From the IMG/VR virus record IMGVR_UViG_3300042564_004560: a stretch of 64,000 bases of DNA. One strand, written 5' to 3'. Each line of letters starts with the position of its first letter. Position 1 is the first letter of the stretch. This stretch comes from an uncultured virus (IMG/VR IMGVR_UViG_3300042564_004560). Lineage: Duplodnaviria > Heunggongvirae > Uroviricota > Caudoviricetes. Both the position numbers and the translations under genes were made by a program. Shown piece after piece: positions 52,487 to 59,022 of the stretch. The notes under the pieces were generated by a model. It did no database searches and had not been told where the DNA came from. It saw only the letters and a program-made list of their open reading frames with translations.

Positions 52487-53363
52487 AGTTAAATTTATTA
52501 CATCAATTTATAGTGATTTATATGGTACAGAATTTGGAGGTAGAATGAGTAGGGGAGGGCACTATAGTTATAGTTTACTTTCTTTATTAAAAATGACCGA
52601 CGCAGATTTTTTATGCTATACCTCAGATAGAGAAATAGAACCATTAAAACAATTTTTTTATGAGACCCATTCAATATCTCCTGAAAAATTAAAATTTGAA
52701 ATTTTTGATATTTCAAAAACAAAATTCCAACATTTAATTGAAGAATATAAAGATGTTGAAATGACTAAAAGGTCTGATAGATGTGTTGAAATTCAATACT
52801 CTAAATTTCATTGGTGGTGGAACGAAGATAAGTCCTACGATTATTATTATTGGATTGACGCAGGATTATCTCATTGTGGGTTAGTACCTAACAAATATTT
52901 AAGTGGAACTCATCCTGAACAAAGATATTATGAATGTAGTTTATTTAATAATGATTTCTTACATAATATGATTGAAGATACTGGTGATAAATTCTTAATT
53001 ATTGGTAAAGATAACGATAGAAACTTTTGGTCTCAAACTTTAGACCCAAAATGGTACACAGAGTATGATAGGTCTCTTCATATTATAGGAGGATTGTTTG
53101 GTGGCCATAGAGATAAATGGGATAAAATAGTTAATATGTTTGAAGACTATGCGGAAAAAACTATTGTTGATGCAAAAAATTTACATCACGAAGAACCAAT
53201 TATGACTTTGATGTATTTTAACCATAAAGAATTATTTGAAAGAAAACATTTTGATATTTGGTGGTGTAGAGATAATGCACCCGCAGGAGTAACGGATGAA
53301 ATGTTTACATTAAACATAAGCTTTTTTAAAATTTTAGAAGAATTAAATAGAATATATGAGTAA
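52476..53363 (+). CDS. HtrL/YibB-like putative glycosyltransferase
   Basis: YYWIDAG, IIGGLFGG, HEEPIM; paralogous to N-terminal domain of next gene. Confidence 0.55.
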   Translation: MSVKVKFITSIYSDLYGTEFGGRMSRGGHYSYSLLSLLKMTDADFLCYTSDREIEPLKQFFYETHSISPEKLKFEIFDISKTKFQHLIEEYKDVEMTKRSDRCVEIQYSKFHWWWNEDKSYDYYYWIDAGLSHCGLVPNKYLSGTHPEQRYYECSLFNNDFLHNMIEDTGDKFLIIGKDNDRNFWSQTLDPKWYTEYDRSLHIIGGLFGGHRDKWDKIVNMFEDYAEKTIVDAKNLHHEEPIMTLMYFNHKELFERKHFDIWWCRDNAPAGVTDEMFTLNISFFKILEELNRIYE

Positions 53364-55029
53364 TATAACTTTAGTAACGGGTATTTGGGATATAGGTAGA
53401 GGAAACCTAACAGAGGGATGGAGTAGACCATTCCAACATTATTTAGACAAATTTGAAAAATTATTAGAGGTTGAAGAAAACCTTATAATTTTTGGTGATG
53501 AAGAATTAAGAGAATTTGTTTTCCAAAAAAGAAAACACGAAAATACACAGTTTATTGTTAGACCTTTAAGTTGGTTTACAGATTCAGAGTTTTTTCCTTT
53601 AATTCAAAACATTAGGACTAACCCTGAATGGTATAATCAAGTTGGTTGGTTATCAGAGTCAACTCAAGCAAAATTAGATAATTACAATCCTTTGGTGATG
53701 TCTAAAGTTTTTTTATTAAATGATGCCAGAATTATGGACCAATTTAATTCAGAATATATGTTTTGGATTGATGGTGGATTAACAAATACGGTACATCCAG
53801 GATATTTTACACATGATAAAGTTTTAGACAAGTTATCAAAATATGTTTCTAAATTTTCATTTGTTAGTTTTCCATACGATGCAGAGACTGAAATACACGG
53901 GTTTAATTACCCAAAATTAAATGAATATGCAGGAAACAAAGTAACTAAAGTTTCTCGAGGAGGATTTTTTGGTGGACCAACACATACAATCTCAGATATT
54001 AATGGGATATATTATGGGTTATTAAAATCTACATTACAAGAGGGGTATATGGGTACTGAAGAATCAATCTTTAGTATTATGTCATATAAACATTCTGATT
54101 TAATTAACTATTTTGAAATAGAATCAAATGGATTAATTGGTGGGTTTTTTGAAAGTTTAAAAAACGATGAACTTAAAGTAAAAAATGAAAATGGGACTAA
54201 AGAAATTAATTCATTGGACACAGGTAAAGTTGGATTATATGTCATTACCTTTAATAGTCCAAAACAATTTAGAACTCTTATTGATTCTATGTTGGCGTAT
54301 GACGGAGATTACATTTTAAAAACTAAAAAGTTTTTATTAGATAACTCTTCTGATTTATCAACTACTGAAGAATATTTGAAAATTTGTGAGGAATATGGGT
54401 TTGAACATATTAAGAAAGATAATTTAGGTATATGTGGAGGAAGACAATGGATTGCAGAACATTTTGAAGAAACAGATTTAGACTATTATTTGTTTTTTGA
54501 AGATGATATGTTTTTTTATCCAAATGAAGGTGCCGTTTGTAGAAATGGATTTAGCAGATATGTACCAAACTTATATTCAAAATCTTTAGAAATAATGAAA
54601 AAAGAAAACTTTGATTTCTTAAAGATGAATTATTCTGAGTTCTATGGTGATAATGGAACCCAATGGGCGTGGTACAATGTACCTCAATCAGTTAGAGATG
54701 AATTTTGGCCGGGTAAACCAAGACTTCCTGAGATGGGACTTGACCCTAATGCACCAAAAACCAAATTTAACTCGGTATTATCACACAAAAGTATTCCATA
54801 CGCTGTTGGTGAAGTTTACTATTGTAATTGGCCTCAAATTGTTAGTAGACCTGGTAATAAAAAAATGTTCTTGGATACAACATGGGCACACCCATTTGAA
54901 CAAACTTGGATGAGTCATATGTATCAATTGGTTAAAAAAGATGAATTGTATCCAGGTTTATTACTTATGACACCAACAGAGCATGATAGATTTGAACATT
55001 ATAGTAGAGAGTTGAGAAAAGAATCATAA
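53356..55029 (+). CDS. HtrL/YibB-like domain fused to GT-A glycosyltransferase domain
   Basis: TLVTGIWDIGR, FWIDGG, GGFFGG, GTEESIF; C-terminal FFEDD. Confidence 0.6.
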   Translation: MSNITLVTGIWDIGRGNLTEGWSRPFQHYLDKFEKLLEVEENLIIFGDEELREFVFQKRKHENTQFIVRPLSWFTDSEFFPLIQNIRTNPEWYNQVGWLSESTQAKLDNYNPLVMSKVFLLNDARIMDQFNSEYMFWIDGGLTNTVHPGYFTHDKVLDKLSKYVSKFSFVSFPYDAETEIHGFNYPKLNEYAGNKVTKVSRGGFFGGPTHTISDINGIYYGLLKSTLQEGYMGTEESIFSIMSYKHSDLINYFEIESNGLIGGFFESLKNDELKVKNENGTKEINSLDTGKVGLYVITFNSPKQFRTLIDSMLAYDGDYILKTKKFLLDNSSDLSTTEEYLKICEEYGFEHIKKDNLGICGGRQWIAEHFEETDLDYYLFFEDDMFFYPNEGAVCRNGFSRYVPNLYSKSLEIMKKENFDFLKMNYSEFYGDNGTQWAWYNVPQSVRDEFWPGKPRLPEMGLDPNAPKTKFNSVLSHKSIPYAVGEVYYCNWPQIVSRPGNKKMFLDTTWAHPFEQTWMSHMYQLVKKDELYPGLLLMTPTEHDRFEHYSRELRKES

Positions 55030-55045: not shown

Positions 55046-55423
55046 ATGGAATTTTATATTAAAAAGAATGCAACATTACCTGTGTTAAAAATGCAGGTAG
55101 TTAAAGATGGTAGGGCCGGTTACATGCAACTAATGCAAGACTTGGAGGTCTCTACTATTTTTTTTACTATGATTGAAGAGGAGACAGGTATTCCTAAAAT
55201 TGTCTCCGCTCCTGCTGAAATAGTTAATTTAATTTTACCTGAAGGTTCTGACCCCGAATATTATATCTATTTTAAATTTACAGAAAGAGATACAAATACA
55301 CCGGGTCGATATCAAGGACAATTTTTAATTAAAAACGACGAAGGAAATTTAATTCTTCCGATTAGAGAAGAACTTTATATTAATATCCAAGATAGTTTTA
55401 TTTCAGAAACTGCTTGTTGTTAA
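55046..55423 (+). CDS. BppU-N-like (baseplate upper protein-type) small structural protein
   Basis: FYIKKNATLP...DTNTPGRYQGQF pattern. Confidence 0.5.
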   Translation: MEFYIKKNATLPVLKMQVVKDGRAGYMQLMQDLEVSTIFFTMIEEETGIPKIVSAPAEIVNLILPEGSDPEYYIYFKFTERDTNTPGRYQGQFLIKNDEGNLILPIREELYINIQDSFISETACC

Positions 55424-55426
55424 CTT

Positions 55427-55912
55427 ATGAAACTAACTAATTTATTAACAAAGATAATTTTAGAGGAAGTAGGTACTACTATTCCTGTTACTAAATTTGT
55501 AACTGATGGTTATTTGATAACACTTAATGCCAGTAAACATCAGTGGAAAGATAGACAAGGAAGTAAATCTCTTGAAGATATTGTTGAAATATATGAGGAT
55601 AATTTTTTAAACAATCCTAAATTTTATGATAGAGTTGGCGTTCCAAACAGGTTAATTAAAAATGTATTTATTAATGATTTTTATATTATTAAAAAAAGGA
55701 TGTCAAATTTAAATAATCCCAAAAATTCAGTGGTTTTTATAAAAGAAGTTGGTGATGAATTAAATTTACCTCAATATATGAATTTTATTGAATTTTTGTT
55801 ATTCACGGAAGACTTAATAAACTATACAATAGTTACTTCCGTATTTTCAGAATATGGTGATTACCTAAAAACTTTTGGAAAAACTAAAAATAGTCCAAGA
55901 TTTATGTTGTAG
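55427..55912 (+). CDS. Hypothetical protein with MKLTNLLTKIILEE leader
   Basis: 161 aa, very AT-rich. Confidence 0.6.
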   Translation: MKLTNLLTKIILEEVGTTIPVTKFVTDGYLITLNASKHQWKDRQGSKSLEDIVEIYEDNFLNNPKFYDRVGVPNRLIKNVFINDFYIIKKRMSNLNNPKNSVVFIKEVGDELNLPQYMNFIEFLLFTEDLINYTIVTSVFSEYGDYLKTFGKTKNSPRFML

Positions 55913-55936
55913 GTTTAAAATAGTTTACTATCTTTG
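55906..55936 (+). promoter_or_regulatory. Bacteroidota-type promoter (GTTG-N19-TATCTTTG)
   Basis: Upstream of small ORF at 55974. Confidence 0.6.
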
Positions 55937-55973
55937 TACTCAATAACAACAACCCCTAACACCCACAGAAATC

Positions 55974-56087
55974 ATGACAACAGTAACTTTCACAATGCAA
56001 GAAATATGGGCAGCTTCAAGACCATCAATTCAAAAAAGTAAAAAAACTTACAATAGAAAACCAAAACACAACATCAACAAATATTAA
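55974..56087 (+). CDS. 37-aa basic ArfA-like small protein (not in ORF track)
   Basis: MTTVTFTMQEIWAASRPSIQKSKKTYNRKPKHNINKY; own promoter and terminator. Confidence 0.65.
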   Translation: MTTVTFTMQEIWAASRPSIQKSKKTYNRKPKHNINKY

Positions 56088-56093
56088 TGAATG

Positions 56094-56120
56094 ACCCAAC
56101 ATAAAAGTGTTGGGTTTTTT
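56094..56120 (+). terminator. Intrinsic terminator
   Basis: ACCCAACA-TAAAAG-TGTTGGGT-TTTTT. Confidence 0.85.
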
Positions 56121-56131
56121 AGTTAATAGAA

Positions 56132-56162
56132 TTTGACTAACCATTTTAATTTTCTATATTTG
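56132..56162 (+). promoter_or_regulatory. Bacteroidota sigma-A promoter TTTG-N19-TATATTTG
   Basis: Exact match to the -33/-7 consensus, upstream of DNA polymerase. Confidence 0.75.
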
Positions 56163-56226
56163 TATACAATGAGTAAGGTGAACTTCACAATGACGTGATT
56201 GCCAATAAACCACTCCTACACAAAAT

Positions 56227-59022
56227 ATGTTTACAGACCAATACATTGAGTCGTTCCTACATGGAAACGACCCAGAAGAATTTATAGTTGCCATTGAGTA
56301 CGACTATCGTGAGAACTGCATCTACAAAATTAAAGAGATTCCTGGTAAAGGAAAAGAAATCCGTAAAGATACATTTACCCCATTTGCTTGGGTAGGTGAC
56401 TTACGTCAAATTAATTTTTACAAAGGTTCCAAAGCAGCTCAAAAAGAAGCCATGACCAAACATGGTATTATGATTGAAAAATTAGAAACCCACGGTAATG
56501 AAAGATTACAAAAGGGTATGACTTTCATGGTTAAATCACTTAAAGGTTATAGAGAACTTATCCAATTCTTTAGAGAAGGCGGATGTGACCCATGGGGAGA
56601 TAAAACCAAAGACAAAGTAATAATTCTACCTCCTGTAGAACAATATTTAATATCCAAAGAAAAAAGATTATTCAAAGGATTTGAGAATTACGAAGAAGTT
56701 ACCCGAATGGTATATGACTTGGAGACGACTGCTCTTGAACCTCAAGATGGTCGTATCTTCATGATTGGAATTAAAACCAATAAAGGTTACCATAGAGTTA
56801 TTGAATGTGTGGATGAATCTGAAGAGAGAAATGCCATCATTGAATTTTTCAAAGTAATTAACGAACTTAAACCAAGTATTATTGGTGGTTATAATTCTGC
56901 AAACTTTGACTGGCATTGGATATTTGAAAGATGTAAGATTTTAAATATTGACCCAAAGAAAATTTGTAAATCATTGCATCCCGACCATTCATTTACAAGA
57001 AAAGATAGTATGTTAAAACTCGCCAATGAGGTTGAGTCTTATACTCAAACTTCTATTTGGGGTTACAATGTTATTGATATAATTCATGCTGTTCGTAGAG
57101 CGCAAGCAATTAACTCAAGTATCAAAGCTGCTGGTTTGAAATACATTACCCAATACATTAATGCGGAAGCACCTGACCGTGTGTATATTGACCATTTAAA
57201 TATTGGTCCATTCTATACAAAGAAAGAAGACTTTTGGTTAAACATTCAAAATGGTAAGTATAAAAAAGTTGGTATTGATTCTAAAATTGATGCGGTTTGT
57301 GAGAAACGAAGTGATATCTACAATAAAATAACAGGAGATAAGTTAGTTGAGATGTATCTTGACGATGACTTAGATGAAACCCTTAAAGTTGACCAAGAGT
57401 TCAACCAAGGTTCATTCTTGTTGGCTGCAATGATTCCAACAACATATGAAAGGGTTTCAACAATGGGTACCGCAACATTGTGGAAAATGTTAATGTTAGC
57501 ATGGTCTTACAAACATGGACTTGCAATCCCTGCCAAAGAATCAAAGACTGACTTCGTAGGAGGTCTTTCTAGACTACTTAAGGTTGGTTATAGTAAGAAT
57601 GTACTTAAACTGGATTTCTCGTCCCTATATCCTTCTATTCAGTTGGTACATGATGTATTTCCTGATTGTGATGTGACGGGAGCTATGAAAGGGATGTTAA
57701 GTTATTTCCGTAATACTCGTATTAAGTACAAACAACTTGCTGAAGAATATTATAACATTGACCGTAATAAATCTGAATCGTATGGTAATAAACAATTACC
57801 AATTAAGATTTTTATTAACTCTATGTTTGGTGCCTTGTCTGCCCCTCAGGTTTATGCTTGGGGTGATATGTACATGGGAGAACAGATTACTTGTACGGGT
57901 AGACAATATCTTCGTCAGATGATTAAATTCTTTATGACCAAAGGATATGTACCATTGGTTATGGATACAGACGGTGTTAACTTTTCAACACCTGATGATG
58001 CAAAAGACCGAGTTTATGTTGGTCGTGGATTGAATTGGAAAGTTGAAGAGGGTAAAGAGTATTATGGACCCGAAGCTGATGTTGCGGAGTATAATGATAT
58101 TTTTATGAGAGGTGAGATGGCTCTTGATACTGATGGTGTTTGGCCGTCAACCATTAATTTGGCTCGTAAAAACTATGCGGTTATGGATGCCAAGGGTAAG
58201 ATTAAATTAACAGGTAATAGTATTAAATCTAAAAAATTACCATTGTACATTGAGGCGTTTTTGGATAAAGGTATTAAAATGTTATTGGAAGGTGATGGTA
58301 AAGCATTTGTTGAATATTACTACGAGTATCTTCAAACCATTTATGATAAAAAAATTCCATTGTCTAAAATTGCACAAAGAGCTAGAGTTAAGTTAAGTCT
58401 TGATGATTATAAAAAAAGGTTAACAACAAAAACTAAAGCAGGTAATAGTATGAGTAGAATGGCTCATATGGAATTGGCATTACAAAATAGTCTAAATGTA
58501 AGTTTAGGTGATGTTATTATGTATGTTAATAATGGAACCAAATCATCACAAGGAGATGTGCAAAAGATGACGGTAAAACAAATCAAAGATGCAAACGCTT
58601 TTAACTTGTTTAATGACCCGAAATCAAAATCAATCAGTGATGGTGTAATGATTAATTGTTATATGTTAGATAAAGACATTTTAGATAATAATCCTGATTT
58701 GACAGGCGACTATAATGTACCACGAGCAGTTGCAACATTCAATAAAAAACTTCAACCTTTAATGGTTGTTTTTAAAGATGAAGTTAGAAATGGGTTAATT
58801 GTTAATACCCCTGAGGAAAGAGGTATTTTTACAACGGCACAATGTGAATTAATCAATGGTTATCCATTAGGTAATGGGGACCAAGATAGTTTGGAAGAAG
58901 TTATGACATTATCAGATGGTGAATTATCTTATTGGGAAAAAAGAGGTCTTAATTCTGATTATATGTATGAAATGGCAGAAGAAAATTGGGAAGAAAAATT
59001 AGGATTGCTTCAAACCGTCTGA
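56227..59022 (+). CDS. DNA polymerase family B
   Basis: Exo motifs YDLETT and GYNSANFDW; polymerase motifs LDFSSLYPS, KIFINSMFG, MDTDG, KNYA. Confidence 0.95.
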   Translation: MFTDQYIESFLHGNDPEEFIVAIEYDYRENCIYKIKEIPGKGKEIRKDTFTPFAWVGDLRQINFYKGSKAAQKEAMTKHGIMIEKLETHGNERLQKGMTFMVKSLKGYRELIQFFREGGCDPWGDKTKDKVIILPPVEQYLISKEKRLFKGFENYEEVTRMVYDLETTALEPQDGRIFMIGIKTNKGYHRVIECVDESEERNAIIEFFKVINELKPSIIGGYNSANFDWHWIFERCKILNIDPKKICKSLHPDHSFTRKDSMLKLANEVESYTQTSIWGYNVIDIIHAVRRAQAINSSIKAAGLKYITQYINAEAPDRVYIDHLNIGPFYTKKEDFWLNIQNGKYKKVGIDSKIDAVCEKRSDIYNKITGDKLVEMYLDDDLDETLKVDQEFNQGSFLLAAMIPTTYERVSTMGTATLWKMLMLAWSYKHGLAIPAKESKTDFVGGLSRLLKVGYSKNVLKLDFSSLYPSIQLVHDVFPDCDVTGAMKGMLSYFRNTRIKYKQLAEEYYNIDRNKSESYGNKQLPIKIFINSMFGALSAPQVYAWGDMYMGEQITCTGRQYLRQMIKFFMTKGYVPLVMDTDGVNFSTPDDAKDRVYVGRGLNWKVEEGKEYYGPEADVAEYNDIFMRGEMALDTDGVWPSTINLARKNYAVMDAKGKIKLTGNSIKSKKLPLYIEAFLDKGIKMLLEGDGKAFVEYYYEYLQTIYDKKIPLSKIAQRARVKLSLDDYKKRLTTKTKAGNSMSRMAHMELALQNSLNVSLGDVIMYVNNGTKSSQGDVQKMTVKQIKDANAFNLFNDPKSKSISDGVMINCYMLDKDILDNNPDLTGDYNVPRAVATFNKKLQPLMVVFKDEVRNGLIVNTPEERGIFTTAQCELINGYPLGNGDQDSLEEVMTLSDGELSYWEKRGLNSDYMYEMAEENWEEKLGLLQTV

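Follow-up and report, generated by a model that had tools for sequence, protein, structure and literature searches.

A 37-residue phage peptide with an ArfA-like basic tail, a candidate ribosome-rescue factor from an uncharacterized mini-protein family

We analyzed a 64,000-nucleotide (nt) stretch of DNA (hereafter the window) from the uncultured Caudoviricetes virus IMGVR_UViG_3300042564_004560 and a 37-amino-acid (aa) open reading frame (ORF) in it, which is flanked by a 161-aa ORF of unassigned function and by the gene for a family-B DNA polymerase (polB, 56227-59022). The small ORF is a real conserved gene under purifying selection, and its product can be placed by profile comparison, as a new member, at the periphery of a large uncharacterized family of phage mini-proteins. 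During infection, the peptide probably binds to ribosomes that are stuck, or releases them. The best reading, to which we give a probability of roughly 0.5, is that it would act like ArfA or BrfA, sensing the empty messenger RNA (mRNA) channel and recruiting a release factor, and would here be produced constitutively. The window belongs to a 129.6-kb viral record with an estimated completeness of 43%, and the carrier is a large lake phage of Flavobacterium-type bacteria. This phage invests heavily in translation: the 129.6-kb record holds 22 transfer RNA (tRNA) genes, with a cluster at G000:C1:17881-27357, outside the window, and no transfer-messenger RNA (tmRNA) gene.

A first-pass annotation of this DNA had described the gene as an unannotated stand-alone phage gene with its own TAnnTTTG promoter and its own terminator, and each of these elements was recovered. 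The translation agrees letter for letter with the peptide given there, the -7 box is present and conserved (TAnnTTTG lies within 90 nt 5' of the ATG in 20 of 22 distinct relative contexts), and a hairpin followed by a T-run lies just past the stop. A four-sequence alignment (A1), consisting of the window peptide and its three closest variants, led to 34 further viral loci, in which peptides of 36-49 aa stand beside other neighbours; where these relatives have terminators, the terminator sequence differs from that of the window. Across 22 distinct core DNA sequences, from loci chosen by protein motif, a choice that favours conserved proteins, the mean nonsynonymous divergence (pN) was 0.17 and the mean synonymous divergence (pS) 0.66, and pN was the lower of the two in each of the 231 pairs. 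Out of 1.84 billion cluster representatives, the four-sequence profile retrieved 140 at E ≤ 1e-3, the lowest E value being 6e-20; two of them (P0047 and P0088) were dropped as repeat-protein false matches, judged by eye. With a wider profile, 982 proteins among 1448 candidates matched at E ≤ 1e-3, and every name given to them is 'hypothetical protein'. The family consensus reads K-T-I-E-V-T-M-Q-E-I-W-x-A-T-R-P-N-V-x-K-N-K-K-K-Y-T-R-K-x-K-H-K, with strong conservation of the N-terminal T-x-Q-E-I-W-x-A. Family members are 35-60 aa long, and the window peptide carries the whole family core, [TS]-x-Q-E-I-W-x-A-[TS]-[RK]-P-x-[VI]-x-K-[SN]-K-K-x-Y-x-R-K-x-K-H.

The family lies on the periphery of one Pfam model. 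Of 139 family members, 96 touched Pfam PF23876 (DUF7230) at E ≤ 10, the best with 27.2 bits at a cut-off of 27, and the match is to the same conserved basic core, since profile positions 15-37 cover the K-K-x-Y-x-R-K-x-K-H tail. The window peptide differs in that it matched neither DUF7230 nor any other Pfam family at E ≤ 10. Because the window peptide is unmatched and the best member barely reaches the cut-off, the family can be described as a wider halo around the curated DUF7230, of which no mention was found in the literature. In PHROGs, 21, 14, 7 and 3 of the 139 members matched four families of unassigned function, and a scan of NCBIfam returned nothing. Searches of the PDB with the single peptide (phmmer) and with the four-sequence profile gave nothing related. 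The ESM Atlas contains an identical peptide, and its closest clusters are unnamed; as leads only, it places nearby a DUF7230 cluster (0.90) and a cluster of 46-aa proteins with PF03889, the ArfA family, on 23% of its members (0.89). One cultured carrier was found, Flavobacterium phage vB_FspM_immuto, whose gp147 (49 aa) is annotated as 'hypothetical protein'.

The link to the ribosome comes from the C-terminal part of the peptide, where residues 16-37 form a basic tail with a K-x-K-K-x-Y-x-R-K-x-K-H core. In an AlphaFold2 model of the window peptide (pLDDT, the predicted local distance difference test, 83), residues 1-7 are extended, residues 8-15 form a helix and the tail is extended. A search of 177,635 distinct PDB sequences with the family profile gave 10 matches at E ≤ 10, six of which are ArfA constructs (best E 0.16), with an alignment that covers ArfA residues 26-54. 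The sole better match is a designed coiled coil aligned to the N-terminal helix, so that ArfA is the best natural match. Comparison of the family with an ArfA alignment of 121 close enterobacterial sequences by hhalign gave P = 6.4e-4 and a probability of 28%, placing family residues 16-37 on ArfA 26-50. None of 200 full column shuffles attained the score of 20.3, and neither did any of 200 shuffles of the family segment; among 200 shuffles of the basic segment of ArfA, one did. The first-pass annotation had named similarity due to Lys/Arg bias alone as a reason to discard the idea; with the score unreached in 599 of 600 shuffles, the likeness is not explained in that way. An ArfA profile that also included six phage PF03889 proteins gave P = 6e-4, and its score was again reached by 0 of 200 shuffles. 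Reciprocal matches between family and ArfA hidden Markov models (HMMs) scored 10-17 bits. HMMER aligned three members (P0266, P0048 and P0042) to ArfA without a gap, along K-x-x-K-[GS]-K-x-[ST]-Y-x-R-K-x-K-H; the window row in this gapless register was read by eye, and hhalign instead inserts a gap of three residues. Both programs place Y26-N-R-K-P-K-H32 of the window peptide on ArfA Y39-H45, and the ArfA motif that the first-pass annotation had given is indeed what the E. coli sequence reads.

The cited papers are drawn on here and below for the passages concerned. The mRNA tunnel is occupied by residues 31-48 of ArfA, a protein that becomes inactive when truncated after Met40 (PMC5378476). 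A Lys-His pair common to ArfA and BrfA contacts U534 of the 16S ribosomal RNA (rRNA), and both factors lay a short beta-strand on release factor 2 (RF2) (PMC6881298). As far as the alignments go, the segment matched in ArfA is thus the functional one, and the K and the H of the Lys-His columns are kept in 109 and 90, respectively, of 127 aligned family sequences. A profile comparison with ArfA, BrfA and ArfT had also been proposed, and its outcome was mixed. For ArfA, hhalign and the PDB profile search support similarity in the tail motif, while no HMM match to PF03889 was obtained. BrfA structures are present in the PDB. No BrfA chain appeared among the family-profile matches to the PDB at E ≤ 10. 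For ArfT, the window peptide had no Pfam match at E ≤ 10, and the ArfT motif KKGGSTNKK is absent from it. A complex prediction for the family peptide with RF2 of a Flavobacteriales metagenome-assembled genome (MAG; L137), run without controls, returned 'no answer' with a score of 0.00 and is evidence neither way. In the phylum of the Bacteroidota MAG that carries the family, ArfA (PF03889) was found in 0 of 301 genomes searched.

The way in which relatives of the gene are laid out provides a further argument. One subgroup is characterized by Q-E-R-W and by a C-terminal extension (...KHKKKGSxQGPSFL...). At six loci (L148-L153, including immuto gp147), a GC-rich hairpin with a T-run lies inside the ORF, right past the KHK basic tail; the extension is the translation of this hairpin and T-run, and the stop codon stands further 3'. 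Neither the residues encoded past the T-run (FLPKAFL, FFITRY, FLFI) nor the position of the stop is conserved. The in-ORF stems differ between loci, and one base pair is changed on both sides, from GC to AU, in two of the six sequences. If these hairpins terminate transcription, the resulting messages would have no stop codon. A review reports that arfA is expressed from a non-stop mRNA, in which a stem-loop causes termination or RNase III cleavage, that brfA has a rho-independent terminator ahead of its stop, and that their non-stop messages put both genes under tmRNA control (PMC8012679), which agrees with what the first-pass annotation had stated about arfA. By its layout, the immuto type suggests this tmRNA-linked arfA/brfA design. 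Terminator positions were scored in 66 distinct family loci. The terminator lies just past the stop in 13 of them (4-7 nt past it in 11), overlaps the stop in two and lies inside the ORF in four by script, to which L149 and L150 were added by eye. The window copy is of the first kind, with the stop 5' of the terminator, so its message is not a non-stop one, and the escape from tmRNA gating that had been claimed for it follows from the sequence. Given its double stop ahead of the terminator, the window copy would be constitutive rather than tmRNA-gated.

A number of observations weigh against an ArfA-like function. The window peptide and its three closest variants (A1) did not match PF03889 (cut-off 25.5 bits) at E ≤ 10; the ArfA model found nothing in the phage record, with the E. 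coli control found; the scan of the 139 members matched 44 families, and the 25 of them listed do not include ArfA; and BLASTP against E. coli ArfA produced no alignment. The glycines of the ArfA KGKGS are missing, as the window peptide has K-S-K-K-T-Y and the family K-N-K-K-K-Y where E. coli and phage ArfAs have KGKGSY. Reversed ArfA scored 15.1, compared with 20.3 for the true sequence. The likeness is limited to a basic motif of ~22 residues, with statistics in the twilight range (PDB E 0.16; hhalign probability 11-29%), and chance or convergence may lie behind it. The N-terminal half of the family is ~10 residues shorter than that of ArfA and cannot be aligned to it, the alignments stopping at family residue 12-16; it is residues 2-16 and 15-31 of ArfA that act on RF2 (PMC5378476, PMC6299226). 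The window copy does not have the non-stop design, its stops (56085-56090) preceding the hairpin at 56093, and 47 of the 66 scored loci have no terminator nearby. No recurrent translation-related partner was seen among the family neighbours. Finally, RNA libraries say nothing firm about expression. Four metatranscriptome runs hold small shares of the sequence as contigs, which cannot show transcription, transcript ends or level. A single contig (X20, record 16), from a relative ~91% identical, spans 55965-56242 across the terminator and may be DNA, and the other three runs leave the 37-aa gene uncovered.

Weighing both sides, the earlier proposal of a phage ribosome-rescue or ribosome-binding peptide holds in part: it is favoured by a real conserved phage gene, an ArfA-like tail beyond compositional bias, relatives of non-stop design and a fitting context, with 22 tRNA genes in the record and PF03889 in none of the 301 genomes searched in the phylum of the carrier MAG, and it is weakened by the lack of PF03889 membership and by a twilight match of ~22 residues. 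Ribosome binding, release-factor recruitment, rescue and a benefit to the phage are all inferred from sequence. If the ArfA/BrfA-like reading is right, a host-type promoter and a terminator of its own would delimit a short monocistronic message for the peptide. Its extended C-terminal tail (residues ~16-37, core K21-S-K-K-T-Y-N-R-K-P-K-H32) would thread into the mRNA channel left empty when a ribosome has run to the 3' end of a broken mRNA and stalled, and there the Lys-His pair would contact 16S rRNA. The short N-terminal strand and helix (TVTFT-MQEIWAAS) would sit in the A site and recruit or activate a class-I release factor, which would hydrolyse the peptidyl-tRNA and free the ribosome. 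A role against host defences that cleave mRNA or tRNA, which the first-pass annotation had also raised, is pure conjecture.

Compared with known rescue factors, the family shares features with several and coincides with none. ArfA (YhdL; PF03889), the RF2-dependent factor of beta- and gamma-proteobacteria, is likewise small, has an extended, basic C-terminal tail whose residues follow the same order, with the K-H pair kept, and, like some family relatives, has a terminator ahead of the stop. Its N-terminal part may be comparable in being hydrophobic; the T-x-Q-E-I-W-x-A of the family shows no sequence similarity to it. ArfA differs from the phage-borne, sporadic window family of Bacteroidota hosts in being a chromosomal core gene, and from the window copy, with its ordinary double stop, in its non-stop mRNA. 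BrfA (YqkK) of Bacillus subtilis is also RF2-dependent; it puts a basic tail into the mRNA channel, touches 16S rRNA through Lys-His, lays a short beta-strand on RF2 and has a rho-independent terminator ahead of its stop (PMC6881298, PMC8012679), the last of these being the layout of the immuto-type relatives. It shows no sequence match to the family, is 62-72 aa long and restricted to Bacillus, and its tail is helical according to the same two papers. ArfT of Francisella is ~40 aa long, has a basic C-terminal stretch that has been likened to that of ArfA, uses no non-stop mRNA and works with RF1 or RF2, but differs by its motif KKGGSTNKK (PMC6299226) and by belonging to a KGG-type repeat family of stress proteins (PMC6514570). 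True ArfAs also exist in phages, as short genes with the ArfA tunnel motif (pelagiphage HTVC027P gp30; L140-L143, L145 and L146). These score above the PF03889 cut-off, with 30.8-81 bits, and have retained KGKGSY, neither of which applies to the window family. The ArfA alignment retrieved seven IMG/VR loci, of which six clear the Pfam cut-off and one, L144 (22.8 bits), does not. The shortest of these phage ArfAs (L141 and L145/L146) have 45 aa and ordinary stops, and L145 and L146 also touch DUF7230 weakly (E 0.24) over the same residues. HTVC027P gp30 has been annotated as ArfA and is reported to be highly expressed (PMC12753301). In the literature on phage ArfA-like factors, only annotations of such true PF03889 genes were found, and the term ArfA has 0 occurrences in a jumbo-phage survey that discusses ribosome rescue (PMC7824862).

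Two other functional explanations have to be considered, both of which we regard as unlikely. The peptide could bind the mRNA channel of the ribosome without any rescue, blocking tmRNA-SmpB or ArfB or holding free 30S subunits, and in this way retune host translation or its quality control. The evidence from the ArfA-like tail applies equally to such a binder, since SmpB, ArfB, ArfA and BrfA all put basic tails in the channel and a peptide of the SmpB tail inhibits trans-translation (PMC8012679), and the N-terminal half is unlike the RF2-activating part of ArfA. However, the conserved N-terminal T-x-Q-E-I-W-x-A points to a specific partner rather than to a mere plug, a plug would hurt phage translation as well, and the tmRNA-gated non-stop design of the relatives is known only for back-up rescue factors. 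It is similarly improbable that the peptide is a generic small basic protein of the early phase, binding nucleic acid or regulating DNA, RNA polymerase or mRNA, whose resemblance to ArfA is a lysine-rich accident. That ArfA was first picked by the earlier annotator without a database search, that all ArfA statistics are of twilight quality (PDB E 0.16; probability below 30%) and that replication or early genes, for instance those for PolB, DnaB and DUF932 proteins, adjoin the gene would fit this explanation. Yet an accident of this kind has to contend with the shuffled controls, with ArfA as the top natural match in the PDB and with the coincidence of conserved family columns with the ArfA Y-x-R-K-x-K-H, and it would leave the in-ORF terminators of the relatives hard to explain.

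The remaining two explanations deny the peptide a function of its own and were rejected. Because the small ORF, the terminator and polB follow one another in an attenuator-like order, the ORF might be a leader peptide that governs terminator read-through into polB. This is largely refuted and very improbable: a conserved promoter and leader belonging to polB itself lie past the terminator, also in relatives without the ORF; among the polB-anchored relatives, taken as the best 80 of 498 matches, the 37-aa ORF is present at only seven loci, nine of the 80 holding less than 330 nt 5' of polB and therefore not being fully judgeable; and elsewhere the same peptide, whose amino-acid sequence is under purifying selection, adjoins unrelated genes. 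An ORF arising by chance within a small non-coding RNA or an intergenic spacer is hardly credible either. The ORF is very short and has no Rfam or Pfam match (a gathering-threshold Rfam scan of the window gave 0 matches, and a scan of the window for tRNA and tmRNA genes also gave 0), but its substitutions are biased to synonymous ones, it belongs to a protein family with hundreds of members, and the transcript, apart from its terminator, has no excess structure (z -0.73).

If the ArfA/BrfA-like reading is extended to the whole family, a broader picture can be sketched, which we offer tentatively and with some doubt. Phages of Bacteroidota and of other hosts without ArfA would carry their own family of mini rescue factors that recruit release factors (the DUF7230 halo), related to ArfA or convergent with it. 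The family would come in two interconverting designs, one gated by an in-ORF terminator (the immuto gp147 type) and one always on, with the stop before the terminator (the window type), so that the phage would control rescue when infection or RNA-cleaving defences flood the cell with broken messages. To our knowledge, release-factor-dependent rescue factors have been described from few bacterial lineages, namely ArfA, BrfA and ArfT. A review expects more small rescue factors beyond the reach of homology searches (PMC8012679). If true, this picture would assign a function to a Pfam domain of unknown function and to a family of 'hypothetical' phage mini-proteins comprising ~1000 sequence clusters, would mean that phages bring rescue factors into hosts that have no ArfA, and would supply a natural gated/ungated pair for studying tmRNA control of back-up rescue. 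The cultured Flavobacterium phage immuto makes the reading testable at the bench.

The family is largely phage-borne. A pattern scan of 185,579 bacterial genomes, one per species, confirmed 11 loci, every one from a MAG or an uncultured record; the majority lie at the end of a contig or on a short one. For one of them, L123 in a MAG, the flanking recN and pirin genes suggest a chromosomal position; in the phylum of that MAG, two of 401 genomes match at E ≤ 1e-4, that MAG included. Given this rarity in bacterial genomes, the possibility that the family is the hosts' own rescue factor was dropped. The neighbours of family genes vary and include DUF932, DnaB, thioredoxin, CCA/polyA polymerase and helicase genes as well as, in the one MAG, recN and pirin. 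On two MAG contigs, from Flavobacteriales and Crocinitomicaceae (L118, 1824-4041, and L119), the family gene stands directly 5' of a DnaB-like helicase gene, which on L118 is followed by a reverse transcriptase gene; the L118 arrangement suggests a replication module of a phage or mobile element. At L158 (about 1001-1470) and in P0084, the mini-protein frame continues without a stop into a lipoprotein-like gene (signal peptide ...LFSGC), giving a 'fusion' of 134-156 aa, and at L096-L098 a lipoprotein gene begins 2 nt past the mini-protein stop. The layout of L158 and P0084 may represent a fusion, read-through or another stop-less arrangement.

The features of the window gene are given in Table 1. 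TAnnTTTG is the -7 consensus of Bacteroidota promoters, and among the relatives a TTG lies 17-21 nt ahead of the TAnnTTTG box in 17 of the 22 distinct contexts. In the AT-rich window, the TTG/TAnnTTTG pattern occurs 18 times compared with 13.6 ± 3.8 in shuffles; since it is not enriched, a single match to it carries little weight, and it is the conservation of the box among relatives that counts. The -33-like TTG overlaps the 3' end of the upstream 161-aa gene, and a scan for sigma-70 sites (TTGACA/TATAAT) listed nothing at the promoter site of the 37-aa gene. Tandem stops are found in relatives as well, as TAA TAA (L093 type) or TAA TAG (L109 type), and hairpins of four other sequences stand 4-7 nt past the stop in relatives. 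The terminator hairpin of the window (56093-56116) has 10 pairs, four of them G-C, and a loop of 4 nt, and three terminator-like sites were counted in the 2-kb region compared with 0.6 ± 0.7 in shuffles.

Table 1. Features of the 37-aa gene and its putative control elements (positions in the window).
Feature	Position	Strand	Basis or remark
TTG, -33-like element of a putative Bacteroidota-type promoter	55907..55909	+	pattern TTG-N19-TATCTTTG; function inferred
-7 box TATCTTTG, TAnnTTTG type	55929..55936	+	19-nt spacer after TTG; 45 nt 5' of ATG
A/C-rich leader without Shine-Dalgarno sequence	55937..55973	+	partly conserved in relatives: ...TAACAC.YACAGAAAYY-ATG
37-aa ORF MTTVTFTMQEIWAASRPSIQKSKKTYNRKPKHNINKY, ATG start, TAA stop (56085-56087)	55974..56087	+	sequence, purifying selection, family profiles
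Second in-frame stop TGA, immediately 3' of TAA	56088..56090	+	sequence
Intrinsic terminator: hairpin GACCCAACAT-AAAA-GTGTTGGGTT, then T-run	56093..56120	+	begins 5 nt past first stop

A comparison of window positions 55427-56122 with relatives L006, L008, L009 and L017 shows both the small ORF and the 161-aa gene to be accessory. In most polB relatives, a 125-aa gene ending in '...ETACC' leads directly into the conserved polymerase promoter and leader, and one relative (L009) keeps the 161-aa gene and an identical terminator without the small ORF. On this evidence, the small gene is an accessory module outside polymerase control. A blastn search of 55400-56700 against 50,697 phage records gave no match. 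Just upstream of the module, at 53356-55029, lies a gene that encodes 557 aa and is probably glycosyltransferase-like, with a match to HtrL_YibB (E 2e-19) over the first 250 residues of its product. The polymerase gene is preceded (56133-56226) by its own TTGACT-N16-TATATTTG promoter and by a leader, AAGGTRAAYTTCAC-N5-6-GTGAWWGCYAATAAACCACT, that is conserved in 24 of 24 aligned relatives. A small hairpin in this leader varies in its loop and shows no compensatory changes; the leader may serve polymerase autoregulation as a translational operator or as a binding site for a protein. Residues 60-116 of the family-B DNA polymerase match Pfam BofC_C (E 2e-6, 28.3 bits, cut-off 21), which is odd for a polymerase.

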